DNA of 64,000 nucleotides from a virus. Under the pieces are notes generated by a model that saw nothing but the letters and a program-made list of their open reading frames with translations, did no database searches and was not told the DNA's origin. Below, piece after piece: positions 9,363 through 49,765 of the stretch. The stretch's first letter is position 1; every line of letters begins with the position of its first letter. The stretch is taken from the IMG/VR virus record IMGVR_UViG_3300031788_000007, positions 1 through 64,000 of that record, one strand, 5' to 3'. Made by a program: the position numbers and the translations under genes.

Positions 9363-9662
9363 ATGAACAAGTTTCTGTGGCGGCTATTCGGGATTGAGGA
9401 CGAAGAAGAGTTTGTCGACCTAAGCCGACGCGGGTTCTTGCGTGGGGTGGGAGCGGCAGCGGTTTTGGTGGCGGCTGGACCAAAATTTTTTCTTCCGCCG
9501 ATTGGCGGGTGGAGCCCGGCGGTTGCGGAGCCTGTGTATCAGTTCGGGTTTCTGGAGTGGAAGGATTTGACTGCGGTTACCAACAACTACATCGTGCCGT
9601 TGCTGACAGACAATGTATTCAAGCCAAGCCCATTATTTACAAAGTTGAGGAGGTCGAACTGA
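9363..9662 (+). CDS. Tat-like signal peptide fused to a copy of the major capsid N-terminus
   Basis: SRRGFLR plus hydrophobic stretch; a 33-aa C-terminal segment is 22/33 identical to MCP residues 2-34. Confidence 0.85.
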   Translation: MNKFLWRLFGIEDEEEFVDLSRRGFLRGVGAAAVLVAAGPKFFLPPIGGWSPAVAEPVYQFGFLEWKDLTAVTNNYIVPLLTDNVFKPSPLFTKLRRSN

Positions 9663-9663
9663 T

Positions 9664-10071
9664 ATGGGGACAGAAGCGGAAGAGAAAGAACTGGCGGCTG
9701 CGCGGGAGCATTTAGGGTACTGGCAACGGGAGTTGCGGCTTGACCACGTAGACTTCGAGATTATCTTGATGGCGCCAGAAGACAACAACGGGAACCTGGG
9801 AGACTGCAAGCACTCGTTCGGCCGGCACAGGCAAAAGATTCGGTTGTACAATCCGGCAGACCGGACGGATAAAGACCGAGCGGTTTTCCGGCGCGATTTG
9901 GAAGTTGTGATTGTGCATGAGTTATTGCACACCAAGGAAATGCCGTGGCGGGATCACCCGAAGGTAGATGAGATTTTCGACAAAGACAAGTGGCTGGAGG
10001 GTCTACATGAGGACAGCCTGGACGCGGTGGCCGAGGCTCTTGTGCGGGCTCGGAGAGGGATGAGGAGGTAA
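9664..10071 (+). CDS. zincin-like HExxH metallopeptidase-family protein
   Basis: VIVHELLH motif with a downstream E. Confidence 0.6.
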   Translation: MGTEAEEKELAAAREHLGYWQRELRLDHVDFEIILMAPEDNNGNLGDCKHSFGRHRQKIRLYNPADRTDKDRAVFRRDLEVVIVHELLHTKEMPWRDHPKVDEIFDKDKWLEGLHEDSLDAVAEALVRARRGMRR

Positions 10072-10073
10072 GT

Positions 10074-11194
10074 ATGGGGATGGAAATAATCGACAAGAGG
10101 GCGGAGAAGCGGGCGGCTGAGGCGGCTGCACCGAAAGAGCCAACGGTTTTGGAAATCTGCGAGGATCGCGCACAACGAGCGGCAGAGGCGATTGCGAACG
10201 GGGACATGGAGACAATCAACGCGGTAGCGGCTGAGTGCAAGAATCCGCCGTCGACGTATGGTGATGTCGTTCCGTTCAAGAAGACGGTGCGTGGCGAAGT
10301 GCAGATGTGGAAGAGTGTCGGGTACGTGGTGGCTTTTCTTCCTCTCGGGCAGAATCAGGTGTTGATGGTCCGAGCGGCGGGTTTGCGGTCGGACGGGATG
10401 CTGTTCACTGCGGACTACGCGATGCCTCCAGTGTGGGAGGATGGGACGGATTTCACGGGTGAGGCGCGGAAGCGGCTTGACACGTTCAAGGGGTGTTCGT
10501 GCGACAAACGGGGGAGGTGCAAGTTCCACGGCGAGGTATGTCCGGGGCCGGCCGGGCCTGGGCGGTGGCTGGAGGATGACATCAAGCGGTTACAGGCGAT
10601 CCAGGGGCAGCAGTTGCCGGAGGCTGTCGAGGTGTTGATGCGTGCTGAGGCCAACAAGCCGAATATCATCGTGCCGGGGAGGGGATGATGGACAACCCAA
10701 AGATGACATTCTCGGGTTGGCGCGGGCCAAAGGAGCCAGTACGTGTCGTAATTCCAGAGGGAATGCTTCAAGTCGGTCGAGCGGCATACAACGCCTACGT
10801 AACGGCAGATAGAGGTGCGATATTTATTCTCGAAGCGGCCCTTCGCTGGCTGTCGGAGAACCCGGTGGTGCCGACACCAGAGCAGACTAAAAAACTTCTT
10901 GCCACGGTGCAGTTCGGGGCAGGAAGAGAAATTGATCCTCATTTGATCGAAAACTTATTGTTGGCGTGGCAGCGCCGCATGTTCCTCGCGCCCGAGCCGG
11001 AAGTTCCGGAGGCGATCAAAGATTTGCTGTACGCTGGCAATGGCTTGACGAGTGGCGACATTGATAAGAAAGTGATCGAAGCCTACCGCCGCGGCCAGAA
11101 AGCGGCCTGCCCAACTTGCGGCAACACCCTGGGATGCGTCTCGTGCTTCGATGAAGCCAAAACGCCGACGGCGGAAAAGGCGGCGCAAAGATGA
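10074..11194 (+). CDS. two hypothetical proteins (10074-10688, 10685-11194)
   Basis: Overlapping stop/start codons, SD sites. Confidence 0.65.
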
Positions 11195-11288
11195 AAGCCC
11201 ACCTTGGAAATTTATGGCGTGAGAGGGCAGACGAAATACTCTGTCTCGGGAAGTACCGTCGATCCCTGATGGCGTTGAAAGTTACGCT

Positions 11289-11939
11289 ATGGGAACTTCA
11301 AAGCCTGTTCGTGGAGAGGTAGCCTTGAAACTCTATTTCTTCGGGTCAGAGATGGTTTCGCAATCGGCGTATCTTGAGATCGAAATTCTCTACCCGCAAG
11401 AGTTAGAATACCTTCGGAACATTGAAGCGCACATGCTTGCGGTCATCAACGAGTTTGGGATACCGGGGTTGGCCGCTCCACAGATCGGGTTTCCGATTCA
11501 GATGGTAGTGGTGAGGTTATCGGGAGGGAAGCGGTTGACGCTTTTGAATCCTCATATCGAGAGGATGTACGGAGCGGAGACAGAATATCCCGAAGGCTGC
11601 ATAAGTTGCCCTCCAGGCGGAAACCGATGCCCTACGGCGAGGATGCAATTCATCAACGTAATAGGGAGTTCGATCGAAGAGCCGGCAGTTGTGAAAGACT
11701 GGCATTTCTCCAGCAGGGATGCGAGGGTGGTGCAGCATGAAGTAGATCACTTGGCGGGGACATTCTTTGTAGACAGAGCGAGTGTGGTGGAGAAGTCGAA
11801 GGTGTTGGATCAGTTCCACCAGTGGAAGCACACATTCAAACAGAATGGGAGTCCAAATTTTGGACTCACACGAGGAGGACACAATGGCAGAGCAACCACC
11901 AGTACCCAGGCGCAGCATTCCCGAACAGTCACCGCTTGA
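11289..11939 (+). CDS. def: peptide deformylase (copy 1, divergent)
   Basis: GLAAPQIG, EGCIS and QHEVDHLAG motifs. Confidence 0.9.
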   Translation: MGTSKPVRGEVALKLYFFGSEMVSQSAYLEIEILYPQELEYLRNIEAHMLAVINEFGIPGLAAPQIGFPIQMVVVRLSGGKRLTLLNPHIERMYGAETEYPEGCISCPPGGNRCPTARMQFINVIGSSIEEPAVVKDWHFSSRDARVVQHEVDHLAGTFFVDRASVVEKSKVLDQFHQWKHTFKQNGSPNFGLTRGGHNGRATTSTQAQHSRTVTA

Positions 11940-13287
11940 GGGTGGAACAGTCATTTGCGGCGGCTGTGGTAAGGCAATGACCATGACGGTCAAGATGGGG
12001 CGCCGTGGCGTCGACTCATTGCGCTACGAGTGTTTCAACGAAGAGCGCGGGTGCTCCTACGGCTTTGACCGGAAGGTGTACGTGAGCAACACGGAGATGA
12101 AGGGGATACGGAAGGACGGGACCGAAGTCAAGGTTCCCGAAGCGAGGGTGTGATGGGTACATGCTCTGCCTGCGGAACACGAATCGAACTTGGGTCTTCG
12201 ATAACCAAAGGGTGCAAAGAGTGCTTCTTTGGATATTTGAAGCTGCGAGAGGCTGCTAAGGAGTCTGGGGGGAAGGTATACCCGTTGGCGCCTTGGGTTG
12301 GGAAAGTGAAAGATAAGTGGGAAAGTTTTTTGTCGAGGTGGAGTTAAATGAACCAGACGTGGATGAAGGGGACAGTTATCGAGTATCACGGAGAAAAGTT
12401 CGTGGCGGCCGATGACGAGATCCTTGGATTGCTTGAAGAGGCAACGATCTTTGAGAGAGGGGGATCGGCGAGTCTCCACGAGGCATTCAGGGTGGCAATA
12501 GGGTGCGGGAGACTAATTCCTCACTTTTTGACAGAGAGGGTATGATTATGGGTACGAACATCGGACCTGACATTAAGTACAAGTGCAACAACGATTGCAG
12601 CCAGATGGGTTGCCCTGGACACACTATGCGAATGGACGACAGCCGCTCAAGTGATGTGATTTCATTTGTGATGGACGGAGACCCTCTCATCTATCTCGAT
12701 GAAAACCAGTGGAAGGCCATGCAGGACGCCGAGAAAGAACATGCCAAGAAATACAACTGGAATCTCGACATTCTAAAAAGTTCGCTAGTGGAGGGGATAT
12801 GAACCAGATACTCAGCGGCCTAGCCGGGGCGGTGATCCTCGCAGCGGCCTACGCAACCTTTGTGTTGGCTCGAAGGATCGGCGCTGGCGCCAAGCAATTG
12901 ACGGCGGCCTTGAACGGGATACCAAAGTTGGTGAAGTCTCAGCAAGAGGTCGCCGTGGCCTTGCATCGCTTCTCGGGGGAGTTGGAGTTCCTTCGGACAG
13001 CCATGATCGGAGGGACGCCAGAGGCAGAGCCAGGGGAAGCAGCCAACCCTACAGCGCAGCCGAGGCCGAGGGGTGGACCGATTCCATCATTCCCTCAGTG
13101 GCAGCCTTTCGTAGCGTCTCCGGCTGATGTTCCTGATGCGGCGGTGGAGGATACCGAAGTGATCGACACCTCCGACGAAGATTTTGTCCAGCAAGAGCAG
13201 ATCGAGGAAATCCGCGGCCAAGGGTTCGCGGCTGGACCCGAGGCTGACCCGATGGAAAATCCGCCGGGGGTAACAGCAAACGTATGA
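11884..13287 (+). CDS. small hypothetical genes (11884-12153 Zn-ribbon, 12150-12347, 12348-12545, ~12542-12802, 12799-13287 TM plus acidic tail)
   Basis: Translationally coupled ORF chain. Confidence 0.6.
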
Positions 13288-13889
13288 GCCCAGCCATTTC
13301 AAGACGGCCGGCAGCGAGAGACGCCCGTCACCTCATGCGCTACATTAAGGCGAAGGGTGGGATGGCACCTGCGGCCATTGCTAAGTCGGAAAAAGTGTCT
13401 CTTTCGACGGTAGTGGAATCGATCAAGTCGATCGAGGTGTACGAACAGCAGAACACTGAGGGACAGTTGCAGTTGGCTGTGCGGGATCTGGTAATCTCGA
13501 CCATCCCGCAGGCGAAAGAGACCCTGCACGGCTTGCTGACCGCTACGGAAGTGGTGATGAAAAAGAACCTCAAGACCGGCAAGGATGAGTATGTGACGGT
13601 CGACGACAAGACGACGCGGCTTGAGGGAACCCGTCTTGTGCGGGATTTGGTGATAGGGATGCAGCCGAAGGGGCCGGGGGTAGCTGTCCAAGTGAACAAT
13701 AACAATCAACCAACAGTGAACCTTGGAACAACTGAAACTACGGAAGAGAGGATGAAACGCCTTCGTGCTCAAGCTCAGGCTTTCAACTTGCTTCCCCCAC
13801 AAGTGACGGCAGTTCCTCAGCATATAGATGAGGGTGAGGATTCTCCCGACGACGAACACGATGAGGATGACGACGAAGAGGGCGAGTAA
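13284..13889 (+). CDS. terS: probable terminase small subunit
   Basis: Immediately upstream of TerL; N-terminal HTH-like segment, VAVQVNNN strand, acidic tail. Confidence 0.6.
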   Translation: MSPAISRRPAARDARHLMRYIKAKGGMAPAAIAKSEKVSLSTVVESIKSIEVYEQQNTEGQLQLAVRDLVISTIPQAKETLHGLLTATEVVMKKNLKTGKDEYVTVDDKTTRLEGTRLVRDLVIGMQPKGPGVAVQVNNNNQPTVNLGTTETTEERMKRLRAQAQAFNLLPPQVTAVPQHIDEGEDSPDDEHDEDDDEEGE

Positions 13890-16052
13890 ATGGGAATCCG
13901 TCGCGCAAATCCTCACTTAGAAGAAATTATTGAGGTGTTGGACCTCCATCTCCAAAAGTACAGTGGCGATCAAGCGAAGGCCCGCGAGTATCTTTCTAAA
14001 GATGACAATGCTTGGATAGATGCAGAGATACTCCACTGCATGACTGAGCGACGTTACTTCCTATCCAACTACTATGCCATCAAAACTGAGGACCGCGGCT
14101 TCACCGGGTTGTACCCGTTTTGGGATTCGCAGGAGATTCTGCATGACGAATTCCGCCGGCTGGAGAAGCAGTTTGGACGCGTAAAAGCAATCGTCAACAA
14201 GGCTCGACAGATGGGGGGCAGCACGTATGTCTCAGGGGAAGTCTTCGCGGCAACAATCTTCAGTGAGCATGTAAACTCCATCGTCGTAGCTCAGGACGCC
14301 GATGTGACCCGGTACATCCTCGATATGTACGCAGCGGCTCTTGACTTTTTACCGTGGTGGATGCGTCCCCGAATTCGCTATCAAGAGGCCGGAAAATTCA
14401 TCGACTTTGATGAGAAAGACGAAACCCTGCGAATCACTCGCCCAGGACTGAAGACGCGCATCTACGGAGACAACGGGAACAAGCCGACCGGAGTGGGGAG
14501 GTCTAAAACTTTCGCAAGAGCCCACCTCGACGAGTTGCCGTTCTGGACCGATCCAAGCCAACTTACTAAAGCACTATTCCCAACCTTCAACTCCCCCGAC
14601 GGCTTCTATGTAATGATTTCAACCCCTAAGGGGCGTAATAATCCTTGGCACAATATGTGGCGTAAAGCGGAAGCTGGAGACATTGACTGGAACCCGGTCT
14701 ATATTCCGTTTTACAGGCGCGAAAAGACGTACTCTCTGCCGATTCCCAAAGGCGAAGTCTTTACGTTGACGAAGGACGAGGAAGAGATAAAATACCTCGT
14801 TCTCAAAAAAGACGGCTTCGCGATGAAGAACGAAGTCTTCAACTGGCGCCGGAAGAGGATTCAGGAATTCATCGCTAACGATGGCGACGACAAAATGTTC
14901 AATCAGGAATACAGCCTTACCGCAGAGGAGTCTTTCCAGACCTCCGCAGTCACCGCATATCCGTTGGGCATCATCAACAAGCTGATGAAACGAGTGCTGA
15001 ACCCGAAGTGGATTGGGGAGATCAGTTACGACTTCGACGCTGGCCGGCCGAAGGTGATGGTCCGCGAAGTGGAGCCGACTGCCGACTTGGAGTATCCAAA
15101 GCACCACAACCGCTTCAGTGTATGGAAGCGTGAGCGGCCAGGCGCGGTCTATGTCGTAGGGGTGGACGTGAGCCTTGGAAACGACGGCGGCGACTTCTCA
15201 TCAGTCACGGTAATCGACATATCTCTAGACCTGCCGAAGGATGAAGTGGTGGCAGTGTGGCACGGCTATATTGATCCCGAGTCGCTGGCTGATGTAACTC
15301 TAGCAATTTGCTGGATGTACAACGAGGCTCTGGCGGCCGTGGAAGTAAATTCGATGGGCATGGTGACGAACAACAAGTTGGTCCGCCAGTACGAGTACGA
15401 GAACATCTATCGGTACAAGCACCTCGACAAACTGACTCATTGGATGACCGACATTATCGGCTTTTGGACGAATGACAAGACCAAGCGGGCCTTGATGTCG
15501 AAGATGTCGAAGACGCTGATTGATGACTTGCTCAACATTCCAGACAAATTCACCGTCGACGAGTTTTATGATTTCACTGAAGATGGAGCCGAGGGAGACG
15601 GGGCTAGGGACGACCTTATGATGAGTCTTCACATCGCTCTTTACTGCGGCCACGAGGCTGAGTACCGCGAGATGCGGGAGGGGACCAGCAAGCAGGAATC
15701 GACAAAGCAGCAGAATGAATTCAAAATCCTCGACCGATTCGGTACAATCATTCAGACGACGAACTCGCAGCATGAAGCGGAGCGAGTGTCGAAGAAGAAC
15801 ATCGGAAGCAGTATCGTGAGGACGGCGGGGGCGACCGCTACAGTCAACCTGAAGGGATTGGGGGAAAGGAAAGTACCTAGCGATTTTCAGAATAGCGAGT
15901 ACAGCCCTGTGTTTGACGGCAATGGGACGGCTTCGCGCATGTACGAGGACGGGATCGATCCGGAGCTGATAACTCCAGAGGCGATAGCCCAGTACGAGGC
16001 GGATCAGGCGGAACTGGACTCGGATGACGAGAATTCATGGCTTTATCAGTGA
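13890..16052 (+). CDS. terL: terminase large subunit
   Basis: KARQMGGST Walker A, HLDE Walker B, ISTP coupling motif, YVVGVDVSLG..GD/VEVNS/DD RNase-H nuclease; ~130-aa C-terminal extension. Confidence 0.95.
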   Translation: MGIRRANPHLEEIIEVLDLHLQKYSGDQAKAREYLSKDDNAWIDAEILHCMTERRYFLSNYYAIKTEDRGFTGLYPFWDSQEILHDEFRRLEKQFGRVKAIVNKARQMGGSTYVSGEVFAATIFSEHVNSIVVAQDADVTRYILDMYAAALDFLPWWMRPRIRYQEAGKFIDFDEKDETLRITRPGLKTRIYGDNGNKPTGVGRSKTFARAHLDELPFWTDPSQLTKALFPTFNSPDGFYVMISTPKGRNNPWHNMWRKAEAGDIDWNPVYIPFYRREKTYSLPIPKGEVFTLTKDEEEIKYLVLKKDGFAMKNEVFNWRRKRIQEFIANDGDDKMFNQEYSLTAEESFQTSAVTAYPLGIINKLMKRVLNPKWIGEISYDFDAGRPKVMVREVEPTADLEYPKHHNRFSVWKRERPGAVYVVGVDVSLGNDGGDFSSVTVIDISLDLPKDEVVAVWHGYIDPESLADVTLAICWMYNEALAAVEVNSMGMVTNNKLVRQYEYENIYRYKHLDKLTHWMTDIIGFWTNDKTKRALMSKMSKTLIDDLLNIPDKFTVDEFYDFTEDGAEGDGARDDLMMSLHIALYCGHEAEYREMREGTSKQESTKQQNEFKILDRFGTIIQTTNSQHEAERVSKKNIGSSIVRTAGATATVNLKGLGERKVPSDFQNSEYSPVFDGNGTASRMYEDGIDPELITPEAIAQYEADQAELDSDDENSWLYQ

Positions 16053-16066
16053 AAAAGGAGGAAACA

Positions 16067-16273: not shown

Positions 16274-16275
16274 AC

Positions 16276-16596: not shown

Positions 16597-16623
16597 TCCA
16601 AATTTTGGAGCCGAGGAGGGGTT

Positions 16624-16929
16624 ATGGAATGGGTGAAGCGTAGAGTATTCCAGTTTCAAAAAAAAGACCCGTGCCACACGGAGATTGAGCATGTATGTTT
16701 CTTCAGGCTCCGCAGCGACGGGACGATGTGGTATCAGGTGTCGCGGCTCTCAATGGCCGAAATGATTCATCGGCTTCCCGGCGGGTGGCTACATGATAAG
16801 TGGAAGCGGTTCTTGGCAGAGGAAACAAAAGTTCCGAAGGTAACAGTCGAAGAGTTCGATAGAGAGTTCGAGGCTTGCATGAACCGTATGCGCGGCGTCG
16901 AGGTCGAGTTGATGTTCAAAAACACGTAG
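16624..16929 (+). CDS. hypothetical protein flanked by two palindromes
   Basis: GAGGAGG SD; palindromes at 16595 and 16928. Confidence 0.7.
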   Translation: MEWVKRRVFQFQKKDPCHTEIEHVCFFRLRSDGTMWYQVSRLSMAEMIHRLPGGWLHDKWKRFLAEETKVPKVTVEEFDREFEACMNRMRGVEVELMFKNT

Positions 16930-16959: not shown

Positions 16960-17589
16960 ATGCCAGCATTCAAGACGGAATTTAGCTGTCCGAAGTGCAA
17001 GCGTGAAACGGGGCAGTCGAACCAGATTTCAGCCGCCGAGGGAAGGTTGACGTGCCCGGCCAACTCGAATCATCGGTGGGACGACACCGCGGCCTTCTAC
17101 GCAGACGGGCCTCAAATGGAGTTCAAGGTAGGGCCGGCCAAGTTCCCACCTGTTGAGGGGCAGACGCCGATCACCCTGAAGATACCCTTGCGGATCAAGA
17201 CCGATCTATCCGCTCAGTGGGGGAGTGACGAGGCAGTTTCGGCCAGGGTAGCCGACATCCTTTTACAGATGGCCGAGGGCGAAGTGATGATCCTTGGGAT
17301 GACAGACAAAGGGCGTCTGTTTGACCGCCTTGGACAGAAGTTCTCAAATTCCAGTGAACTTGTTGGCATAGTCTATGCGAAGATGTGTGAAGTAGACGAA
17401 GCCAAGGGTGAGCGGGACGCAGCCGTAGAAGACCTAAAGGCTTACGAGTCGAGGTCGCCGGGGAGGGTTATCGTGGATTTGGGAGACCAGTTCGCAACCG
17501 CTCAGGCGAAGGCTAAGGATGCGGAGACCCCACTCAAGCTCTGGATCGAAGAGCGGACACGGATGGCACTTCAAGAGAACTGGTTTTGA
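16960..17589 (+). CDS. zinc-ribbon plus RHH-like/coiled-coil protein
   Basis: CPKC...CPANSNHRW; ITLKIPLRIK RHH-like strand. Confidence 0.6.
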   Translation: MPAFKTEFSCPKCKRETGQSNQISAAEGRLTCPANSNHRWDDTAAFYADGPQMEFKVGPAKFPPVEGQTPITLKIPLRIKTDLSAQWGSDEAVSARVADILLQMAEGEVMILGMTDKGRLFDRLGQKFSNSSELVGIVYAKMCEVDEAKGERDAAVEDLKAYESRSPGRVIVDLGDQFATAQAKAKDAETPLKLWIEERTRMALQENWF

Positions 17590-17600
17590 TAGGAACTCCA

Positions 17601-21539: not shown

Positions 21540-21766
21540 GTGGTGAGGCAGGCGGGACGCCTTGAGTTCCCGCAACTGCAATTCTCCAAGGAAGCATGGG
21601 TCCATGCGGAGCCTGAAGGGATAGCAGGGATGAGTTGAACGGGAAGCCGAGAGGCCGAGCCTGTGAGACTAGGGCGACAACGGCGAAGGCCGCGGTAATC
21701 AAACATCTCTGGCCCAATAGGGCGCTCGACAAGGGCTCAACCCGAGTCGAAGAAAGCAAAGGGCTT
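21540..21766 (+). ncRNA. candidate structured RNA in scaffold-MCP spacer
   Basis: At least 6 short hairpins (GCGGGA/TCCCGC, GCATGG/CCATGC, GCC-GAGA-GGC, CGGC-GAAG-GCCG, GCCC-AATA-GGGC, TCGAC/GTCGA). Confidence 0.55.
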
Positions 21767-41540: not shown

Positions 41541-44500
41541 ATGGCAGACGCTCCGTACCAGACGCAAAACTTTTTGCTCAAGAGCCTTGGGGTAGTCGCC
41601 CGTCCGGCAGACGACGCGGTTGATCCTGGGCATTATTTGCAACTCGACAGCCTCGAAGAGATAGAAGAAAACTCTCTTGCAAGTCGCCTTGGAACCACGA
41701 TCTTAAACAAGGTCGGCACAGCCGCTATGCCTATAGCGGGGTCTTTTCTTATAGGAAATCCGAACGTCCATAGCCTCCAGAAACTCAGTTCTATTCCAGC
41801 GCAAGGCAACGTTTCTGGAGCGTGGCGGTATGCTTCCAGAGGTGCAAGGCTCTACCGTATAGCAGGATTGAATCCAGGCGCATATACGCTCCTCTCCGCT
41901 TCTCTTAACGGCCAGCCGTGGGGAAGCGCGGTCTATTCTCCGTCTGTGACCGGCTACCCTTACCTTTACATTGCCGACTTGAACGGAATGTTGAAGGATA
42001 ACGGTTCTTTGGCTGCTCCACAGAAAGCGGGGATATTCCAGCCGCAGTATCCCGTACAGGCGCAAGCGCAGCCGTTATCGGAGATTGTTCTTGACTCCTT
42101 TGTGGGTTCCACTTATGCGACTTCCGGAGTGGGGGCATTTACAGCAAACACCACAGTCAACACTTCGACAAGTGGTTCTGCGATCGCCGTGACCGGCTTG
42201 CAGGAAGTTGTGTTTGCAGCATCGTGGAGGGATTTGTTTCAATCTCTAATCTTCGATGTTGGAGGGGCAAATCAAGAAACAGTTCTAGTTTTGCAGGTTA
42301 CAGATACGGGATTTGTCGCCAACTTCACCAAGACTCACCTTACCGGGGTGACCGTCAATGAAGCGGGTTGGACGGGAACGGTTGCAACCTCGACCACGGC
42401 GACGGTGAGCAAGACGTTTGTGGGAACGCCGATTGCGGCGTGGCCGACGACACTGGACCCAGCAGACTACATCGGGCTTTCACTGTACGTTGGAGATCCG
42501 AACGCGATTCAGTCGATCACCCTTCAATTCAATACGGCGAACGGGGCCTACTTTTACAGGACAATCGGCCAGGGGCCGCTCCAGCAGGCATTGAACGCCC
42601 AGACCGACAGTTCTACGGCCGCCGAGACTGCGGTGTTGACCGACACTCTCGGGGTGTACACGCCGGCCTCGGGAGGAGTGACTTCACTTAACACGGTCCC
42701 AGGTTGGACCCCATTTCTGGTGCAGTTGGAAAGTTTTTCGGGAGCAGGAGGAGCGGACTTCAATGATCCTGTGACGAACTGGCAGAACGTCACGGGCTAC
42801 CAGATAACGATTGTGACTGGGGCCGGGATAGCGACCACCTCATTTCCCATCACGATCAAAGCGGGGTCTTTGCTGCTTCTTGGCGGGGCCGGTCCAGACA
42901 CCTTTGCCGGAGTGGCCTACGATTATCTCGTCACCTACTTCAACATCAACGACTACACGGAATCCAACCCGTCGATGTCGATGACGAATGTAAATCCTCC
43001 ATCGAACACGAACTGGGTCTACCCGCGGCGCCAGCCTGTGCTGTTGACGATCACGAATGGAAGTTCCGACACTCAGATCACTCACCTTCGGATTTACCGC
43101 AGAGGAGGGACACTCGGAGACAACTACCGCAGGATCGACCAAGTGCCGTTGACGGCCGGCACAGGAGGGACTCAGACCTACCTCGACATCTGGAGTGACG
43201 CGGACATCCAGCAGGCGGATGTAGTCAGTTTCACCAATGATGTTCCAGTCACATCTCCGCTTCCCGTTCCGATGAATAACACTCTCGGATCGGCTATCGT
43301 CACCACGAATGGGGTTGTGACGGTAGTCTTGACGAATCAATACGACACATTGACGGGTGGTTTCACTGTTCCCTTATGGGTCGGACAACAGGTGAATATC
43401 GGAAATGTGGTGGCCGCGAATTTCGAGACGGTGATCGTTCTGACTGTTACCCGTGTAGGAATTTTAGGGAGGTTCATTACAGGGTTCACAGCATTTGTGC
43501 AGAACACTCACGCATTGAATGAACCTCTTTCCGCTACAGCGAAGTATGGACAGCCGTTCAACATCATGGCCGTGGCGTTCGATCAGGGGTGGTATGCAGG
43601 CGACTATCAGAATCCCTCATATCTGTACTGGACCCCCAAGGGGAATTTACAGGCGGTAAGCAGCGCATCCTACGAGCCGGTGAGCAGCCCAGGCGATGGC
43701 ATTACAGCGATCGTGGGGACGGCGGCCAATCTATTTGTGAGCACATTGCAGAGATGGTGGTCGGTGGCGCCAGGCAGCAACGTCAACTCTAGCCCGACAA
43801 TCTATCCGACCAATGTAGATCACGGTTGCGTAGGGCCGAGAGCGTGGACGCTGAAAGATGGAACGGTATTCTATCTTGGGTTAGATGGACTCCGCACGAT
43901 GCGTGGAGGTGGAGGGGAGTACATCTCTGAAATCATCGAGTTCGTATGGCAGAACACAGGGCCGACGCCTATTCCGATTGCAGACCCAACGCAGTTTGCG
44001 ACCGTGCAGGCGAGTTGGTGGAATCGGTGGGTGTTCTTCAGCTACATCGCCCTCGACGGGAACCGGCACAGAATCATTCTTGATGTGGACAACAAGCGGT
44101 ATCGCTGTGATGACCTCGATGCCCATAGCATGTTCTTAGAGGAGGATACCGGGACTCTGGTTTGGGGAGACTCTCAAGGGCTTATCCACCTCGACCGGCA
44201 GCTTGTCCAGTACGACGAAACGAACGTGGCCGGAACGGTGACGCAGAGCCCAATAGCGTTCACACTGCAAACACCATACGGGAACCAGGGGATGCCGGAG
44301 GTCCAGAAGCAGTACCAGGAGTTCACGCTGGACTGCAACACAAACGGAAATCCAGTTGGAGTGACTCTTTCGTTTGACGATGGAGAAACGACGGAATTCA
44401 TTGGGACTGTGACGACGACCGTGAGGGAGAGAATCAATCTCAACATCAACAACGGGGAAGGTTTTCAAGCGTACAAGGCGTCCTTGCTGTTGACGGGATC

Positions 44501-44888
44501 GGGAATAACTCGCATCTACCTATTCCAAGCGAAGTTGAAGTACCTGCCGCTGGCGATGACGCGGCAGAGCCTTGACACGTATTGGCTTCGGTTTGGAACC
44601 GACGAGAGCAAGATCTGCAAGCAGGCTTACTTCGAGTACAACGCGGGAGCGGTCATCAGCGGAGCGGTCTACTACGATGACAGCCCTACGGTCGGATTTC
44701 CGTTTACATTGCCACAGTATTCTGGAATCAGAAACCCGCTTCGGGTTCGGTTTCCTGCCGTAAAATTCAGGATGATGCGCTGTATTCTCACGAGCGCGGC
44801 AGACTTCCAAGTGTGGAATGAGAGTAACTTTGAAGTAAAGCCGCTGTGCCAGGGGAAGGGATACGCTAAGTTCCCGATGATGCCGTAA
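41541..44888 (+). CDS. tail hub/nozzle (P22 gp10 / T7 gp12-like) with inserted beta domains
   Basis: 1115 aa, T/G/V-rich; IYRRGG, YLYWT..GCVGP...FYLGLDG beta-propeller pattern; precedes ejection genes. Confidence 0.7.
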   Translation: MADAPYQTQNFLLKSLGVVARPADDAVDPGHYLQLDSLEEIEENSLASRLGTTILNKVGTAAMPIAGSFLIGNPNVHSLQKLSSIPAQGNVSGAWRYASRGARLYRIAGLNPGAYTLLSASLNGQPWGSAVYSPSVTGYPYLYIADLNGMLKDNGSLAAPQKAGIFQPQYPVQAQAQPLSEIVLDSFVGSTYATSGVGAFTANTTVNTSTSGSAIAVTGLQEVVFAASWRDLFQSLIFDVGGANQETVLVLQVTDTGFVANFTKTHLTGVTVNEAGWTGTVATSTTATVSKTFVGTPIAAWPTTLDPADYIGLSLYVGDPNAIQSITLQFNTANGAYFYRTIGQGPLQQALNAQTDSSTAAETAVLTDTLGVYTPASGGVTSLNTVPGWTPFLVQLESFSGAGGADFNDPVTNWQNVTGYQITIVTGAGIATTSFPITIKAGSLLLLGGAGPDTFAGVAYDYLVTYFNINDYTESNPSMSMTNVNPPSNTNWVYPRRQPVLLTITNGSSDTQITHLRIYRRGGTLGDNYRRIDQVPLTAGTGGTQTYLDIWSDADIQQADVVSFTNDVPVTSPLPVPMNNTLGSAIVTTNGVVTVVLTNQYDTLTGGFTVPLWVGQQVNIGNVVAANFETVIVLTVTRVGILGRFITGFTAFVQNTHALNEPLSATAKYGQPFNIMAVAFDQGWYAGDYQNPSYLYWTPKGNLQAVSSASYEPVSSPGDGITAIVGTAANLFVSTLQRWWSVAPGSNVNSSPTIYPTNVDHGCVGPRAWTLKDGTVFYLGLDGLRTMRGGGGEYISEIIEFVWQNTGPTPIPIADPTQFATVQASWWNRWVFFSYIALDGNRHRIILDVDNKRYRCDDLDAHSMFLEEDTGTLVWGDSQGLIHLDRQLVQYDETNVAGTVTQSPIAFTLQTPYGNQGMPEVQKQYQEFTLDCNTNGNPVGVTLSFDDGETTEFIGTVTTTVRERINLNINNGEGFQAYKASLLLTGSGITRIYLFQAKLKYLPLAMTRQSLDTYWLRFGTDESKICKQAYFEYNAGAVISGAVYYDDSPTVGFPFTLPQYSGIRNPLRVRFPAVKFRMMRCILTSAADFQVWNESNFEVKPLCQGKGYAKFPMMP

Positions 44889-44981
44889 ATGATTGTTGTG
44901 GATAGGGAGGTTCGGAGGTATACTGAGGGTGTCGGGAGTGCGAATCCCGGCCAAGCCTAATCGCTACTGGAGGTAGCAACC

Positions 44982-46124
44982 ATGACACCCTCAAACATCA
45001 ATTTAACACCTTTCACAAAACTGTGCCGCAAGGGTCTTCACGAGTACGACGCAACCAAGAAGCTCTGTCCTGAATGTTCCCGAGCCACAAAAGCATCTTG
45101 TCAATTGAGGAACAGAGAAAGATATGTAAAAGCCAACAGCGATAGATACTATTCAAACTATGAACGAAGCAAGGCAGAACATGCGGAATATAGGAAGAAG
45201 AATAGAGAGAAAATCAACGCAAGGCAACTAAAATCTTATCATGAGAACTTAGAGCTAAGGAGAAAACAATCAGCTAAGTATTGCCAGAAAAACAGGGAAC
45301 TGGCGGTGTGGAGAGCGATGGTTCTGCGCTGCACGGATACTAAAAATAAACAATATGAGGATTACGGAGCCAGGGGAATCAATGTTCACAGCGAATGGCT
45401 TGGAGAGAATGGGTATAAGGTTTTTCTCCGAGATATGGGGAAGAGACCAAGCGACAAACATACTCTCGACCGGAAGAATAACGATTTAGGGTACACCCCA
45501 GACAACTGCCGGTGGGTTTTGCCTATAGTCCAAGGAAGGAACAAAAGAAACAATCACCTTATCGAGTACAACGGAAAAACTCAATGCTTGTCTGCGTGGG
45601 CAGGGGAAGTCGGTGTGGGTTCTTCTACTCTGGCAAGGAGAATAACCTTCTGGGGTATAGATAGAGCCATGACCCAGAAACCGCGAATTGTGAACCAAGG
45701 GTTTCACCGTCAACTATGCGACCGAGGCGCAGCATGGTTACGCGACGAGAAATCGTGCCATACAGTCTTTACCGAGTGCGCCCGTAACGTGGACGAAAAA
45801 CCCGACGCAATTGGATGGAGTGGTGAATCTACGTACCTCGTTGAATGTAAGACAACGCGTACCAACTTCTTCGACGATGCCAAGAAAAAGATGAGGTTAC
45901 ACCCAGATAGAGGTGTCGGTTTATTCAGGTACTATCTAGTCCCAAAAGGCATGGTTCTACCAAAAGACGTTCCTGAAAAATGGGGACTCCTGTACGATGG
46001 AGATGTAGTGCAAATAGTCAAAGAGGCTGTTCGGTTCGATGTGAGAAATATCGAAGCAGAGACGCACATTCTTTCTCCGCGGCCTGGAAGGTGGAAAAAT
46101 GGGGCAAACAAATCAACTCCCTAA
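44982..46124 (+). CDS. HNH-type endonuclease fused to an MmcB-like PD-(D/E)xK domain
   Basis: YGARGINV..W, LDRKNND.GY.PDNCRW; then PDAIGW...LVECKTTR..F..D, RYYLVP, WGLL. Confidence 0.75.
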   Translation: MTPSNINLTPFTKLCRKGLHEYDATKKLCPECSRATKASCQLRNRERYVKANSDRYYSNYERSKAEHAEYRKKNREKINARQLKSYHENLELRRKQSAKYCQKNRELAVWRAMVLRCTDTKNKQYEDYGARGINVHSEWLGENGYKVFLRDMGKRPSDKHTLDRKNNDLGYTPDNCRWVLPIVQGRNKRNNHLIEYNGKTQCLSAWAGEVGVGSSTLARRITFWGIDRAMTQKPRIVNQGFHRQLCDRGAAWLRDEKSCHTVFTECARNVDEKPDAIGWSGESTYLVECKTTRTNFFDDAKKKMRLHPDRGVGLFRYYLVPKGMVLPKDVPEKWGLLYDGDVVQIVKEAVRFDVRNIEAETHILSPRPGRWKNGANKSTP

Positions 46125-46515
46125 ACCGACATTCATTGGAATTACGCAGGATCATCAACGATTTCTTAGCCAACTGACCGACGCGACGAACACCTTGCTT
46201 GGGTACAACGGCACGATCCCGATGGTCAACACGCTCGATCTCAACAACAACCCCATTCAAAACGTAGCCGCTCCGGTAGCGCCCACAGATGCCTTGAACC
46301 TCGGGACGGCGGAAGCTAAATACGCTCCATCAGTGACCGGCCCTCAGTTGGATGTGGGAGGGTCGAACTCGTTGAAGGGGGTGACGTACCTCTACACTTG
46401 GAAGAACAAGGGTTTGAGCGTAACGATCACGACGGCGAAGCTGACGGGCGGGGGGACGAACGGGAGTATGACCTTCACTGCGGGCCTCTTGACCGCGCAG
46501 GTCCAAGCCACTTAG
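46099..46515 (+). CDS. small tail/needle-like structural protein
   Basis: LDLNNNPIQNVAAPVAPTDA repeat typical of tail fibres. Confidence 0.6.
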   Translation: MGQTNQLPKPTFIGITQDHQRFLSQLTDATNTLLGYNGTIPMVNTLDLNNNPIQNVAAPVAPTDALNLGTAEAKYAPSVTGPQLDVGGSNSLKGVTYLYTWKNKGLSVTITTAKLTGGGTNGSMTFTAGLLTAQVQAT

Positions 46516-46561
46516 GAGTATGCTGTTGTGGGGAGTCCAAAATTTGGACTGAGGAGGGGAT

Positions 46562-47365
46562 ATGGGGACAGCAACATCATTGACTCTGGATATGCTCAAG
46601 GTGATGACGCCAGATAAAGGTCTGGTGTCGGTCGGCGAGGGGCCTTGGGGAGAGATTTACGCCGATTACCTGAAGAACGCCGGAAACAGGAACATTGTTT
46701 GGAAGCGTCGGCAATTGGGTATGACGACGTTCTCTCTGGCGCGAGGGTTCTTGAAGGCCGCCGAAGGGAAGACCTGCATCATCGTTGCCCATCAGTTTGC
46801 TGGAGCGGATTACCTTTGGGATATGGTGGAGACATTCATCGCTAACCTTCCTGCTCCACTGCCGATCAAGTGGAAGAATAGTCAGAAGCGCTATTTTGGA
46901 TTGGATGGGCGCTTCCCAGCGCAATTCCAAATTGGTCACTTGATGATGGCTGGATTTGGATTAGGAATGAATGTAGACTTTGTTCACTTGCAAGAGTTTG
47001 CATGGTGGCCGAGGCGCGATCAGGAGAGGGTGTGGCAGGCTTTGGCTCCATGTCTAAAACCAGACGCCGAGGTAATCATTGAATCCGCTCCAAAAGAAGA
47101 AGATAACGGACTGTTTGACGAAATATGGAAAGGAGCACCCGCATACGGATTCACCCGTCACTTCTTCCCGTGGTGGAGGGATTCTCGTTACGTTGCCGAG
47201 CCCGTCGATCCTAAGAGTCTGAAGAAGGCCGAGAAGGAATTGATTGACGATCATGGATTGACGCTGGAGCAAATCGGCTGGAGGCGCAAGCAGTGTGACA
47301 GATTCATGGAACTCTACGGAAGTGAGAAGATGTTCAAGATGGAGTACAGTGAATCGGTCCAGTAA
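46562..47365 (+). CDS. stand-alone, degenerate terminase ATPase domain
   Basis: WKRRQLGMTT, IIVAH, HLQEFAWW, IIESAP, FFPWW, WRRKQ, MFKMEYS collinear with TerL N-half. Confidence 0.85.
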   Translation: MGTATSLTLDMLKVMTPDKGLVSVGEGPWGEIYADYLKNAGNRNIVWKRRQLGMTTFSLARGFLKAAEGKTCIIVAHQFAGADYLWDMVETFIANLPAPLPIKWKNSQKRYFGLDGRFPAQFQIGHLMMAGFGLGMNVDFVHLQEFAWWPRRDQERVWQALAPCLKPDAEVIIESAPKEEDNGLFDEIWKGAPAYGFTRHFFPWWRDSRYVAEPVDPKSLKKAEKELIDDHGLTLEQIGWRRKQCDRFMELYGSEKMFKMEYSESVQ

Positions 47366-47381
47366 GAAGAGGGGGTAAGGG

Positions 47382-47984
47382 ATGTACGGATGGGGATGGT
47401 ACGGAACGAAAAGTCTTCAAGTGGTTCCTGTAATGAAGGGGACGCCATGCTTTCTCGACGGCATGATGAGCCACTTGTATTACGAGACGAAGCGGCTTGG
47501 TAAAATCCGGCAAACATTCTGTGGAGACGAGTTCTCGCATGACCACTTCATAGCCTACTTCGAGGCTCTGAAAACCGCTCAAGTTCTCTGCCGGGTGACC
47601 GATGAGGGGAAGTTGATTCCGGTCGGATACAGTTGGGTGAGCAATCCGCGAGGGGTAGACGGAGGCCGGGCCGCGCAGTGCGGGTTCTGCTTCTTGGAGG
47701 ACGGCAGTTCGGGGAAGTCGAGCGCAAGGGACTTGGCGAGATTGGCTGTAGCGTATGCTTTCGAGGATTTGCGGATTGACACAATCCACGGCGTCCAGGT
47801 CATCGACAACATCGCGGCCAGAAACTTCTCCATGCGGCTCGGCTTCAAGCCGGTAGCGGTGGTCCCTGATTACCATGCCATCGACGGCAAGTTGGTAGCG
47901 GCTCAGGTGATGATGCTCAGGAAAGCCGATTTTTGGCCTGGGTTTGTGGCGTGGAAAGAAAAGCAGCCGAAGGTGGGCGAGTGA
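47382..47984 (+). CDS. GNAT-family acetyltransferase-like virion-module protein
   Basis: AYAFEDL..., N.AARNF..RLGF motif; syntenic with P22-like gp14. Confidence 0.7.
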   Translation: MYGWGWYGTKSLQVVPVMKGTPCFLDGMMSHLYYETKRLGKIRQTFCGDEFSHDHFIAYFEALKTAQVLCRVTDEGKLIPVGYSWVSNPRGVDGGRAAQCGFCFLEDGSSGKSSARDLARLAVAYAFEDLRIDTIHGVQVIDNIAARNFSMRLGFKPVAVVPDYHAIDGKLVAAQVMMLRKADFWPGFVAWKEKQPKVGE

Positions 47985-48222
47985 ACACGATCGAAGAGAA
48001 TCTTGACGAGAAGACGAAGGCCGCCTTGAAGGCGTTTCGAGAAAGTCTTTGCGCAGCGGCGAAGAAGGCGTATTCTGATTCCAGCATCGGAGCGAAGGGC
48101 GACTTCTCACCTACTCGGATTGAACATCCAAACGGAGCCAGCCCTTCCGATGTTTCTGACAATCATTAAAATCCAGTAGAAAACTTCGCACAGGTGTCGT
48201 ACCCTCCCTGTAGGAGTGCCGC

Positions 48223-48999
48223 GTGTCGAAACCTGTAAGTAGTGCCGGTGCAGAAGTGGCGCAGGACAACCTCGCTAATCAAATGGCCGCTACGGGGGCC
48301 TCAATGACGGCGGAGAACCAGCAACTCTTTGGAATGGCTCTCCCCGGCCTCCAGCAAGCGGAGACGTACTACGGGACGCTGGCCTCTGGCGATCCGAACG
48401 CTTTAGCAAGGGCGAACGCTCCAGCGATTCAGGCGCTCACGAAGTCTACAGACTCAGCCAAGAAAAACATTATGCAAGACAATCCGAGAGGAGGGGAACG
48501 GAACCTCGCCCTTGAGGAAGCGGATTTGTCGAAGGGCGCCCAGATCGGGCAACTGGAGACGGGATCGTATCTTTCATCCTTCGGTTCACTGGCGAGTCTG
48601 GGTGGTCAGAACGTCGGGCAGGGGACATCGGCAGCTTCGAGCGGGTTGCAGGGAATGAACGCGGCGGCGAACCAGTACGGAAACATTCAGCAGATCAATG
48701 CAGCGAACAAGGCGCAGACGATGGGCACGGTTTCTGATTTTGCCGGGATGGCGATGGAAGGTGCGGCGATGTGCTGGGTGGCGGCTGAGTTGTTCGGTGG
48801 CTGGACTGACCGTAGGACGCACATGGTCCGGTACTGGCTCAAGAACGTGTACTCGAAGACTCTCATCGGGTCGATATTCTGCCGGCTGTATCGGCGGTAC
48901 GGGGAGTGGACTGCCAAGCAGGTACGGACTTACAGGCCGGTTCGGTTCGCGGTCAAGCCGATCTTTGACCACTTTTTGATGGAATCTCAAACAATATGA
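48223..48999 (+). CDS. DNA ejection (pilot) protein with C-terminal CWVA domain
   Basis: A/G/Q/N-rich helical body; CWVAAELFG...LYRRYGE tail. Confidence 0.65.
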   Translation: MSKPVSSAGAEVAQDNLANQMAATGASMTAENQQLFGMALPGLQQAETYYGTLASGDPNALARANAPAIQALTKSTDSAKKNIMQDNPRGGERNLALEEADLSKGAQIGQLETGSYLSSFGSLASLGGQNVGQGTSAASSGLQGMNAAANQYGNIQQINAANKAQTMGTVSDFAGMAMEGAAMCWVAAELFGGWTDRRTHMVRYWLKNVYSKTLIGSIFCRLYRRYGEWTAKQVRTYRPVRFAVKPIFDHFLMESQTI

Positions 49000-49006
49000 G
49001 GAGGAA

Positions 49007-49765
49007 GTGATGGGTAAAGAGAAATACGAACCGATCAACACCGCAAGAGAAGATCAAAAGACTATCACCTTTGTGTGCTCTTGCTGCGGTTCCCTCGTCA
49101 GGTCGGACTACACAGACGCACACGACAGGAAATGCGGGACGCCTGCGGAAAAGGGGATGGATGTGGTGTCAAATATGACTACCAAAGTTCTCGAATTAGT
49201 TGATGAGAGGAGAAAATCGGCTCCATCTCCGATACAAATATGGAGATTCCCTGAACCTGGGAAGTCCTATATTTTAGCGGCTGATCCCTGTACGGGGAGC
49301 GAGGGAGGAGACAATGCGGCGATTGAAGTGATCGACGCAGAGACGGGGGAGCAATGCGCCGAGTTTGCCGCAGTGGTTTCCCCGGAAGACTTAGCTCCCA
49401 TAATCCTTGATTTGGCGCAAAGGTACAACAGTGCGGAAGTGGCAGTCGAGGTGAACAGCGTCGGGCTGATTACAAACAACATCCTGATACGCCAATACGA
49501 GAACGTCTATCGCTATAAGCGCCTAGATAGGGTCAACCATACCGTGACCGATCTTATCGGTTGGTGGACGGACGTAAAAAAAACGAAGGCACTGATGGAA
49601 TCAGCATTCCGCGTAAGCGTTGAGAGGAATCCAAAACTGCTTAACAGCGCGGGCCTGATTGCCGAAATCCTTGCCTATGACGAGAATGGGTATGAGAAGA
49701 ATGATCGGTTCTCGGCGATGATGATTGCTCAAGCGGTTCGTGCCGAAAGAATGGTTACAGTCTAG
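49007..49765 (+). CDS. stand-alone terminase nuclease domain with N-terminal Cys knuckle
   Basis: YILAADPCTG..GGD, AVEVNS; 29/43 identical to TerL over AVEVNS...IGWWT. Confidence 0.9.
   Translation: MMGKEKYEPINTAREDQKTITFVCSCCGSLVRSDYTDAHDRKCGTPAEKGMDVVSNMTTKVLELVDERRKSAPSPIQIWRFPEPGKSYILAADPCTGSEGGDNAAIEVIDAETGEQCAEFAAVVSPEDLAPIILDLAQRYNSAEVAVEVNSVGLITNNILIRQYENVYRYKRLDRVNHTVTDLIGWWTDVKKTKALMESAFRVSVERNPKLLNSAGLIAEILAYDENGYEKNDRFSAMMIAQAVRAERMVTV

Follow-up and report, generated by a model that had tools for sequence, protein, structure and literature searches.

Large terminases (TerL), such as T4 gp17 and the enzyme of P74-26, are the closest described counterparts of two of the three genes analysed here. 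They combine an N-terminal ASCE P-loop ATPase and lid, carrying a Walker A motif, a catalytic Glu and a coupling motif, with a nuclease domain that, as in RB49 gp17, has an RNase-H fold and an Asp/Glu/Asp triad. Separate nuclease genes beside the terminase have been described as accessory packaging nucleases, for example HK97 gp74 (HNH), T4 gp49 (endonuclease VII) and T4 gp4 (PMC7824862 and, in part, general knowledge). Free-standing homing endonuclease genes, such as T4 seg and mob, are also found in phages (PMC10448857). Our literature search found no description of stand-alone terminase and capsid-arm genes of the kind reported below in the papers searched, and no paper describing terminase decoys.

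The window, that is, the whole stretch of 64,000 nucleotides that was analysed, is part of a 79-kb IMG/VR contig of an uncultured peat phage and is collinear with a complete 97-kb relative (G003). Independent contigs from other peat samples span the junctions p138-A-GNAT-C, C-D and D-P568, and these bridging contigs, together with the collinearity, exclude an assembly chimera. The A/D region is real DNA, being present in more than 20 runs from peat or permafrost. The features of the window are collected in Table 1.

Table 1. Features of the window discussed in the text.
Feature	Position	Strand	Description and basis
E	9363-9662	+	99-aa protein; conserved N-terminus MNKFLWRLFGI, Tat signal, variable linker, MCP N-arm copy
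Twin-arginine (Tat) signal of E	9420-9497	+	Residues 20-45, SRRGFLRGVGAAAVLVAAGPK; TIGR01409
MCP N-arm copy in E	9549-9653	+	Residues 63-97; match to MCP residues 1-35
TerL	13890-16052	+	Large terminase, intact, 720 aa; phrog_2, E 1.7e-20
Portal	17586-19436
Major capsid protein (MCP)	21767-22735	+	322 aa from ATG 21767; phrog_9953 major head protein, E 1.5e-41
Upstream context	41541-46515	+	1115-aa protein, HNH endonuclease (44982-46124), p138 (46099-46515)
Palindrome	46536-46548		TCCAAAATTTGGA; 13 nt upstream of the A start codon, directly before the A ribosome site
A	46562-47365	+	Free-standing TerL-type ATPase domain with lid, 267 aa; AlphaFold model, Foldseek, homologue clusters
GNAT-type acetyltransferase-like gene	47382-47984	+	Between A and D; Pfam Acetyltransf_3, E 2e-7
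C	48223-48999	+	258-aa protein, core gene of the module
D	49010-49765	+	Free-standing TerL RNase-H-fold nuclease domain, N-terminal CxxC...HxxxC (Cys2-His-Cys) knuckle, 251 aa
Palindrome	49766-49778		TCCAAATTTTGGA; abuts the D stop codon; the 568-aa gene starts 11 nt further on
Downstream context	49790-63003	+	568-aa protein and 3828-aa protein with SF2/Strawberry-notch-type helicase region

The initial annotation had described, besides an intact TerL and MCP, three and possibly four free-standing partial paralogues that copy the phage's own proteins, and had proposed that they act as a decoy or sponge arsenal or as dominant-negative poisons against co-infecting relatives. The intact genes are indeed present, in open reading frames at 13890-16052 and 21635-22735, the true start of the latter likely being ATG 21767. 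Both ATPase and nuclease motifs were seen in alignments of this TerL, which is 52% identical to that of G003, and the MCP has 1448 homologues in the representative library. Three of the partial paralogues, here named A, D and E, match TerL or MCP domains; the fourth candidate, at 32751-33032, has no paralogue elsewhere in the genome, and searches of Pfam, PHROG and NCBIfam gave no match for it. A, D and E are open and have GAGG-type ribosome sites or translational coupling, E being coupled to both neighbouring genes. As had been proposed, they are not products of decay: homologues of the same length occur at 47-87% identity, with dN/dS of 0.11-0.15 for A and D. In the comparison that had been set beforehand as a possible refutation, the fragments proved to be kept in close relatives, with dN/dS far from 1 for A and D. 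A, D and E are real genes maintained by selection, each derived from one domain of a morphogenesis protein.

Judged from its sequence, gene A encodes a TerL-type ATPase domain in full and descends from a foreign TerL lineage. Among the Foldseek matches of its AlphaFold model (pLDDT 86), the T4 gp17 ATPase domain is the best (E 5e-8), and the further top matches include the Avs3-bound PhiV-1 TerL (8dgc) and the P74-26 TerL ATPase. Homologues form at least eight clusters (263-273 aa, 50-87% identity, dN/dS 0.12-0.15), in which K48, R50, Q51, G53, T55, T56, E145, E174, S175 and P177 are invariant, and nearly all of these residues are common to full-length TerLs. None of the ATPase signature residues of its clade is missing from A. 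By both fold and residues A has the N-terminal ASCE P-loop ATPase of TerL, with a lid, a lambda-type deviant Walker A motif (KxRQxGxTT), the catalytic Glu and an ES(T/A)P coupling motif, which reads ESAP in the window and ESTP in the family. The position of the Walker-B Asp is occupied by Gln; a residue other than Asp is found there also in full-length Acidobacteriaceae-type TerLs. The C-terminus of A falls exactly at the ATPase-nuclease linker, and all members of the family are similar in length.

Residues 99-346 of the phage's own TerL are 25% identical to A (E 2e-11). Nevertheless, the claim that A is a copy of that protein had to be rejected, since A lies in a different TerL clade. With the A profile, Acidobacteriaceae-type TerLs score 120-168 bits and TerLs of the phage's own lineage 29-61 bits. 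In the tree, the A family is monophyletic (100/100) and is split from the own-lineage TerLs by a 100/100 branch, the support for A as sister of the Acidobacteriaceae TerLs being just 82/69. Among full-length proteins, A is nearest, at 33-37% identity, to TerLs encoded by a conserved, syntenic element in Acidobacteriaceae chromosomes that resembles a prophage or GTA; this TerL-portal element was found in at least 583 stretches, mostly of Acidobacteriaceae genomes.

Gene D has the reverse profile pattern, own-lineage TerLs scoring above Acidobacteriaceae-type TerLs, and it joins the own-lineage TerLs in the tree with 100/100 support. On these alignment and tree data, D is an old duplicate of the nuclease domain of this phage lineage's own TerL. 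The start of D is most likely ATG 49010 and not 49007, because its database cluster opens with MGKEKYE. The reading frame from 49007 to 49765 is 36% identical to own TerL residues 409-582, the nuclease domain (E 2e-31), and lacks the N-terminal ATPase domain of TerL. The structure and profile check that had been suggested for each fragment supports A by model and D by profile: the structure model of D is poor (pLDDT 50), and its family profile matches the RB49/T4 gp17 nuclease domain 3c6a (E 4e-19). Homologues of D form 15 clusters (dN/dS 0.11-0.15), and between genomes in which TerL identity is only 49-53%, that of D is 59-62%. D92, D100, E147 and D231 are all present in the window's D, and the catalytic triad D92/E147/D231 is retained in 11 of 13 clusters. 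Cluster P0013 (79% identity) has lost D92, D100 and D231 and has kept its full length, and an auxiliary Asp kept by all TerLs is missing in 5 of 13 clusters; catalysis by D may therefore be non-essential.

Unlike TerL, A and D are single domains encoded alone beside an intact TerL. In neither family do ATPase and nuclease share a polypeptide, the lengths are constant across family members, and the two genes come from different clades, lie outside the TerS-TerL-portal block here and are dispensable in relatives. Their distance from the intact TerL, which fills the packaging role, is about 30 kb. As in the case of the accessory packaging nucleases, D is a separate nuclease gene, and in G001 and G002 it lies between terL and the portal gene (p203-D-portal). 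However, its fold is the terminase-type RNase-H fold and not that of HNH, endonuclease VII or restriction-endonuclease proteins, its position is not fixed, and a role in packaging would be only conjectural.

The genes around A and D were also compared. The GNAT gene is a core gene of the module, conserved in L034, L035-L039, L049 and G003, and C is 62-75% identical in G003, L034 and L035 and about 34% identical in L049, with no family match in Pfam, PHROG and NCBIfam searches. The 568-aa and 3828-aa genes are conserved beside GNAT and C in relatives; the helicase region matches Pfam AAA_34, ResIII and Helicase_C_4 and the PHROG DNA helicase. Upstream, the HNH endonuclease matches phrog_3377 (E 2e-43), p138 is shorter than its orthologues in L035 and G003, which have 310-338 aa, and there is a weak match to phrog_511 'internal virion protein' (E 9e-4). 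The block of the 1115-aa protein, p138/p310, GNAT, C, the 568-aa protein and the giant helicase probably encodes internal-virion or ejection proteins, the label 'ejection module' being based on this one weak PHROG match and on gene order. The palindrome occurs 15 times in the window, versus 0.08 expected, and is conserved in relatives.

Within or beside this conserved block, A and D behave like cassettes, occupying different intergenic slots in otherwise collinear relatives. In G001/G002 D lies between terL and portal, in G003 it follows p338, and in the window its neighbours are C and the 568-aa gene; L035-L039, which have A, lack D in this last slot and have none within about 10 kb. Of the three genes, only D is present in the complete G003 and in G002, which is 91% complete, and the long form of D (about 250 aa) is found together with A on three contigs. 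A, D and E are thus not one system, their origins being separate and their phyletic patterns independent, and the single arsenal of own-protein copies is not supported.

Gene E differs from A and D in carrying a secretion signal. Its Tat signal passes TIGR01409 (26.4 bits versus a cut-off of 16.7, E 6e-6; the Pfam TAT_signal match is weaker, at 17.5 bits) and, like known Tat signal peptides, contains SRRGFL(K/R), a Gly/Ala-rich h-region and a basic residue after it. The passenger, which has about 55 residues and ends in a copy of the capsid N-arm, is neither an enzyme nor a cofactor protein and in this differs from the usual Tat cargo. No clear AxA cleavage site was found in E, so the protein may remain membrane-anchored. 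Homologues form 18 clusters (95-123 aa, 47-87% identity), with R22, R23, F25 and L26 of the Tat motif invariant in all 18 and I77, P79, D83 and K87 invariant as well. In the arm, 22 of 35 residues are identical to the start of the MCP (E 7e-13). The DNA of the two arms is 57% identical, with 10 of 35 third codon positions shared and different codons used at 14 of the 22 identical residues; the arm of E has been conserved as protein while synonymous sites became saturated. It is closest to the phage's own MCP (63% versus 49% for the MCPs of relatives), and IVPxLTDNVFKxSP is the best conserved stretch both of the E family and of the N-arm of the MCP family. E is not an HK97-fold MCP, as the A-domain, P-domain and E-loop are absent and the arm stretch alone was copied, extending to about residue 58 of the MCP in some E-family members.

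With odds that we place slightly above even, A and D are enzymes of independent origin that work outside the packaging motor, E displays the arm at the membrane or after export, and all three are selected accessory genes. On this view, the activity of A would be ATP-driven binding or translocation of DNA, and D would cut DNA in a metal-dependent way, either as an accessory enzyme of DNA processing or as a mobile nuclease of the selfish kind. E would end up in the inner membrane or, after export, on its far side, and there present the capsid arm motif to the arm's usual binder.

It is also possible, if unlikely, that D is specifically a selfish, free-standing homing-type endonuclease derived from the terminase nuclease domain, with A and E being unrelated 'moron' cassettes. 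D is small and, with its three slots and its absence from one of them in L035-L039, shows the distribution that marks a homing gene, occurring sporadically and at varying intergenic places in collinear genomes. It is conserved above the flanking vertical genes, HNH endonuclease genes lie in the same regions, the knuckle added in the long form could bind DNA, and the dead P0013 variant fits the degeneration phase of homing genes. On the other hand, the family is not a known homing family, the short form hardly extends beyond the nuclease domain and shows nothing that can be recognised as a DNA-targeting module, neither a target site nor a homing footprint was found, and purifying selection over a long divergence fits a phage-beneficial enzyme equally well.

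We regard as doubtful an explanation in which the nuclease-less A poisons the packaging motor of another element and E the capsid assembly of competitors, the targets being co-infecting phages or the resident TerL-portal element of Acidobacteriaceae genomes. Because A is nearest to the TerLs of that element and not to the phage's own TerL, the phage's motor might be spared, and the arm motif that E carries is kept throughout a large MCP family. However, the identity of A to those TerLs is low for subunit mixing, and its catalytic residues are invariant even though poisoning requires interfaces and not catalysis. The arm of E, being nearest to the own MCP, would poison the phage's own assembly unless E is exported.

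A decoy or sponge function is improbable. In it, A, D and E would tie up the host proteins that detect TerL and MCP (Avs-type STAND NTPases, CapRel, Lit), fail to switch them on, and thereby weaken abortive infection. The model of A superposes on the Avs3-bound TerL, so that binding of A by a sensor that recognises the fold is conceivable in principle; the intact P0013 D without acidic catalytic residues makes a binding role possible, and the three genes are accessory and patchy, as counter-defence genes often are. Yet a faithful mimic of the TerL fold is expected, from published Avs work, to trigger Avs and not to silence it. The invariant ATPase residues of A and the mostly retained triad of D would be needless in a decoy, and the free drift of catalytic residues is seen in neither. 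A and D lie among late or virion-type genes and not in an early region, and the bona fide Tat signal is predicted to carry E out of the cytoplasm and away from CapRel, Lit and Avs. Given these ATPase motifs, D triads and export signal, A, D and E are probably not passive cytoplasmic decoys. PADLOC gave no matches.

That A and D are the halves of a split terL, still assembling into a working two-piece second terminase, is very unlikely and was largely refuted by phylogeny and distribution: they follow each other in N-to-C order at a distance of 1.6 kb, flanked by two palindrome copies, with A ending at the linker and joined by the long-form D on three contigs, but their origins differ, D occurs without A in G002 and G003 and A without D within about 10 kb in L035-L039, the intervening GNAT and C are core genes and not intron, intein or homing insertions, and an intact TerL is present.

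Returning to A and D as enzymes outside the packaging motor and E as an arm display, a more specific and quite speculative version can be proposed, in which E is a periplasmic or membrane arm mimic that captures ejection or internal proteins carried by related phages as they enter, and A is a motor domain re-used in the ejection module. Proteins that normally dock on the capsid inner-surface N-arm inside the head would then be caught in the periplasm, and A might, for example, draw DNA into the cell and not, as in packaging, into the capsid. If this were true, the arm mimic E would represent a new kind of superinfection exclusion.

The genes of terminase and capsid proteins are regarded as hallmarks that occur in single copy, and their products are the chief patterns recognised by bacterial immune sensors. 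The phage genome analyzed here contains an ordinary head module (see the table of features), and self-comparison of both the window and the whole genome recovered the three partial paralogies that had been proposed in the initial annotation. Gene A, a free-standing TerL-type ATPase-domain gene, matches residues 99-346 of the phage's own TerL (25% identity, E 2e-11); gene D, a free-standing nuclease-domain gene, matches residues 409-582 of the same protein (36% identity, E 2e-31); and residues 63-97 of gene E match the first 35 residues of the major capsid protein (MCP), with 22 of the 35 identical (E 7e-13). All three genes have either a GAGG-type ribosome site or translational coupling. The evidence described below shows them to be real, separately derived, selected and movable genes. 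A fourth candidate had no paralogue in the genome and no family match. A further pair of paralogues (34% over 116 aa) was also observed, one member matching a phage peptide deformylase and the other lying in the tail region on the opposite strand.

The source record is a linear IMG/VR virus of 78,982 bp with a completeness estimate of 81%, and almost all genes of the window are carried on the + strand. Gene for gene, the genome runs collinear with G003, a complete relative of 97,230 bp bearing direct terminal repeats. The stretch 44900-51600 was found in more than 20 metagenome runs from peat and permafrost, and the junctions p138-A-GNAT-C, C-D and D-P568 (the gene of a 568-aa protein) are spanned by contigs from other samples; an assembly chimera or artefact is thus ruled out. 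The host of this phage lineage is probably a member of the Acidobacteriaceae in peat. Contigs of one peat metatranscriptome library fall on 47929-48393, 49445-49867 and 51536 onwards, where DNA carry-over is possible and the contigs give no expression level; the first of them overlaps the 238-bp gap between the GNAT and C genes, which has no called gene. A permafrost-metagenome contig of a strain about 95% identical (run X7) appears to skip 48991-49762, from the end of C to the palindrome after D, with only about 21 letters matching past the joint. This is a weak hint of a variant without D and was left out of the evidence.

Features of the window and of the related Acidobacteriaceae element
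Feature	Position	Remarks
Gene E	9363-9662	Tat signal and MCP N-arm copy
Paralogue	11289-11939 (+)	phrog_2890
TerS-like gene	13284-13889	head module
TerL	13890-16052	720 aa, phrog_2
Palindrome-bracketed cassette	16624-16929	
Portal	17586-19436	head module
MCP	21635-22735	phrog_9953; likeliest start ATG 21767
Paralogue	29205-29750 (-)	
Fourth candidate	32751-33032	
HNH endonuclease	35513-36328	phrog_3377
HNH endonuclease	44982-46124	phrog_3377
p138	46099-46515	
Gene A	46562-47365	
GNAT	47382-47984	acetyltransferase-like
GNAT-C gap	47985-48222	
C	48223-48999	258-aa protein
Gene D	49007-49765	most likely start ATG 49010
Helicase-bearing gene	51517-63003	single ORF, 3828 aa
Acidobacteriaceae element	L069-L148, e.g. 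L077:3242-16000	chromosomes

A phmmer search of the PDB with the single A sequence gave no match. The AlphaFold model of A, built from an alignment of eight family members, was confident (pLDDT 86, pTM 0.83), and its best structural match was the ATPase domain of T4 gp17 (E 5e-8); other top matches were the Avs3-bound TerL of PhiV-1 and the TerLs of P74-26, D6E and HK97. The C-terminus of A corresponds to the point where full-length TerLs run on into the linker and the nuclease domain. Homologues of 263-273 aa (87, 75, 69, 56, 56 and 50% identity) were found on contigs of up to 99 kb, and dN/dS against three relatives was 0.12-0.15, with dS near saturation. The residues K48, R50, Q51, G53, T55, T56, H142, E145 and E174-S175-P177 are invariant in the family, including a lambda-type deviant Walker A (KxRQxGxTT), and nearly all of them are common to full-length TerLs. 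The position of the Walker-B Asp is variable in A and is occupied by Ser in the full-length TerLs closest to it, so that it is a trait of the clade and does not signal inactivation.

For D, the AlphaFold model was too poor for a fold search (pLDDT 50), and sequence was relied on instead: the fold was identified by a profile search of PDB sequences, in which a profile of the D family and TerL nuclease domains matched the RB49/T4 gp17 nuclease domain (E 4e-19). D92, E147 and D231 of the window's D align with the gp17 catalytic positions. Among the 15 D clusters, three encode proteins of about 250 aa that carry a CxxC...HxxxC knuckle at the N-terminus, and the others are about 200 aa long and lack it. 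The dN/dS values were 0.11-0.15, and D identity was 59-62% in comparisons of genomes in which TerL identity was only 49-53%. The catalytic triad is retained in 11 of 13 clusters, but D92, D100 and D231 are lost in the close cluster P0013, and the auxiliary Asp (GGD), kept in every TerL, is lost in 5 of the 13. Catalysis is therefore likely, although not certain, to be what selection maintains in D.

E is the most unusual of the three genes. Its 18 clusters (95-123 aa) have a common four-part layout: they open with the conserved MNKFLWRLFGI, continue with a twin-arginine signal in which SRRGFL(K/R) precedes a stretch rich in Gly and Ala and then a basic residue, pass through a linker that varies, and end in a segment homologous to the beginning of the MCP. 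For the Tat signal, the TIGR01409 score of 26.4 bits lies above the curated NCBIfam cut-off of 16.7, and R22, R23, F25 and L26 are invariant. The best-conserved stretch of the whole family is IVPxLTDNVFKxSP, a motif that recurs as a conserved part of the MCP-family N-arm (consensus P..DN.F.S.PL..RL in 1448 MCP homologues), and in some members the MCP similarity reaches approximately residue 58. At the nucleotide level E and MCP are 57% identical, third positions agree in 10 of 35 codons, and different codons encode 14 of the 22 identical residues; conservation is therefore of the peptide, not of the DNA. The sole full E homologue found in IMG/VR is in L062, a record that is 40% complete and has no MCP to pair with its E, and whose TerL is only 24% identical to that of the window. 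Decaying pseudogenes were rejected as an explanation for A, D and E, since purifying selection keeps them.

A, D and E are not parts of one system, and the affinities of A and D are opposite. Compact full-length TerLs of one clade receive 120-168 bits from the A profile and 74-93 bits from the D profile, whereas own-lineage TerLs receive 29-61 bits and 127-155 bits, respectively. In the maximum-likelihood tree of ATPase domains the members of the A family form a single clade (100/100) that is sister to the compact-TerL clade (82/69), and a 100/100 branch separates it from own-lineage TerLs; in the corresponding nuclease tree the D family (98/98) joins own-lineage TerLs at 100/100. A is therefore a foreign ATPase domain, either captured or shared since ancient times, and D goes back to an early duplication of the nuclease domain of this lineage's TerL; the two cannot be halves of one split gene. 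The compact clade represents the TerL (about 460-490 aa) of an element present in at least 583 stretches, mostly from Acidobacteriaceae genomes, at 60-78% identity. About 38 of the 56 loci with complete flanks have one gene order: a pectate-lyase-like protein of 1552 aa comes first, then TerL, a HipA-like kinase, DUF3037, an HK97-type portal, p202 and p322 (a probable capsid, 81% identity). The element looks like a domesticated prophage, or GTA-like, and the kinase pair would be an insertion between its terL and portal genes.

The genes are patchily distributed and occupy several slots. D is present, with neither A nor E, in the complete G003 and in G002 (91% complete), and E is absent from G001-G003. 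Loci L035-L039 contain A (56% identical), D is missing from the roughly 10 kb to each side of it, and there the 568-aa homologue directly follows the C gene. In close relatives, a joint presence of A, long-form D and E is suggested only by contigs of matching length, those with the A homologues P0002, P0003, P0006, P0008 and P0041 being 85-99 kb long. A is located after p138 (window and L033), upstream of the gene of a 1115-aa protein (L035-L039), or between GNAT and C (L049); D is located in the p203-portal interval (G001/G002), after p338 (G003), or between C and the 568-aa gene (window). Where A follows it, p138 has about 138 aa and matches only the first 100 or so residues of orthologues of 310-338 aa (L035, G003), and A seems to have replaced the 3' two-thirds of the gene. 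The constant partners are the 1115-aa protein, p138/p310, GNAT, C, the 568-aa protein and the 3828-aa protein. The 1115-aa protein has a weak 'internal virion protein' match; the 568-aa protein (single sequence) had no phmmer match in the PDB, and ESM Atlas look-ups of both gave weak leads only. In every relative seen, the 3828-aa protein is encoded after the 568-aa protein; the G003 version is 41% identical over about 1500 aa. The only recognised domain of the 3828-aa protein is an SF2/Strawberry-notch-type helicase region at residues 2450-2930 approximately. A 13-bp palindrome, TCCAAAWTTTGGA, has 15 copies in the window, where 0.08 would be expected; it is also conserved in both G003 and L004. 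Its sites (e.g. 16597, 16930, 46536 and 49766, all read on the + strand) are mostly found in short gaps between genes, immediately upstream of a ribosome site, and pairs of them bracket cassettes, among them exactly the A-GNAT-C-D block. The two HNH endonuclease genes are paralogous to each other (37% over 120 aa); one lies inside a glycosyltransferase cluster, and the other between the 1115-aa gene and p138, a place from which it is absent in L033.

On the basis of their conserved catalytic signatures, A and D are most likely enzymes acting on DNA outside the packaging motor, and the recurring neighbourhood suggests a tie to ejection or to functions inside the virion. E most likely goes into or through the inner membrane and would show the N-arm motif to the arm's natural partner, for which neighbouring capsid subunits, the scaffold, putatively encoded at 20598-21539, and internal proteins are candidates. 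A serious alternative for D is a selfish homing-type nuclease, in keeping with its shifting position, its patchy presence and the HNH genes nearby. The initial annotation had suggested dominant-negative poisons or decoys that occupy immune sensors. The former has some colour from the kinship of A to the TerL of the resident Acidobacteriaceae element, but 33-37% identity is distant for subunit mixing. The decoy reading is disfavoured, because A and most D members retain catalytic residues, E bears an export signal, and A and D sit among late-type genes. A second packaging module was rejected. The 568-aa protein is not detectably a portal.

In the papers searched we found no terminase ATPase or nuclease encoded by a free-standing gene alongside an intact TerL, no terminase decoys and no fusion of a Tat signal to a capsid arm. 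Among the cultured phages of the GenBank collection there were no close homologues: DNA searches were empty, and protein searches gave only distant full-length TerLs (at most 28% identity). The three genes indicate that single terminase and capsid domains have been duplicated or captured, kept as separate genes by purifying selection and moved among slots, and annotation pipelines may mislabel genes of this kind as 'terminase' or 'capsid' fragments. All three families are small, conserved and easily expressed, so that the enzyme, decoy, poison and exclusion hypotheses are directly testable. Should A and D prove active, the ATPase and nuclease folds of terminase would have jobs beyond genome packaging; and if E is exported, a capsid peptide would be displayed outside the cytoplasm.
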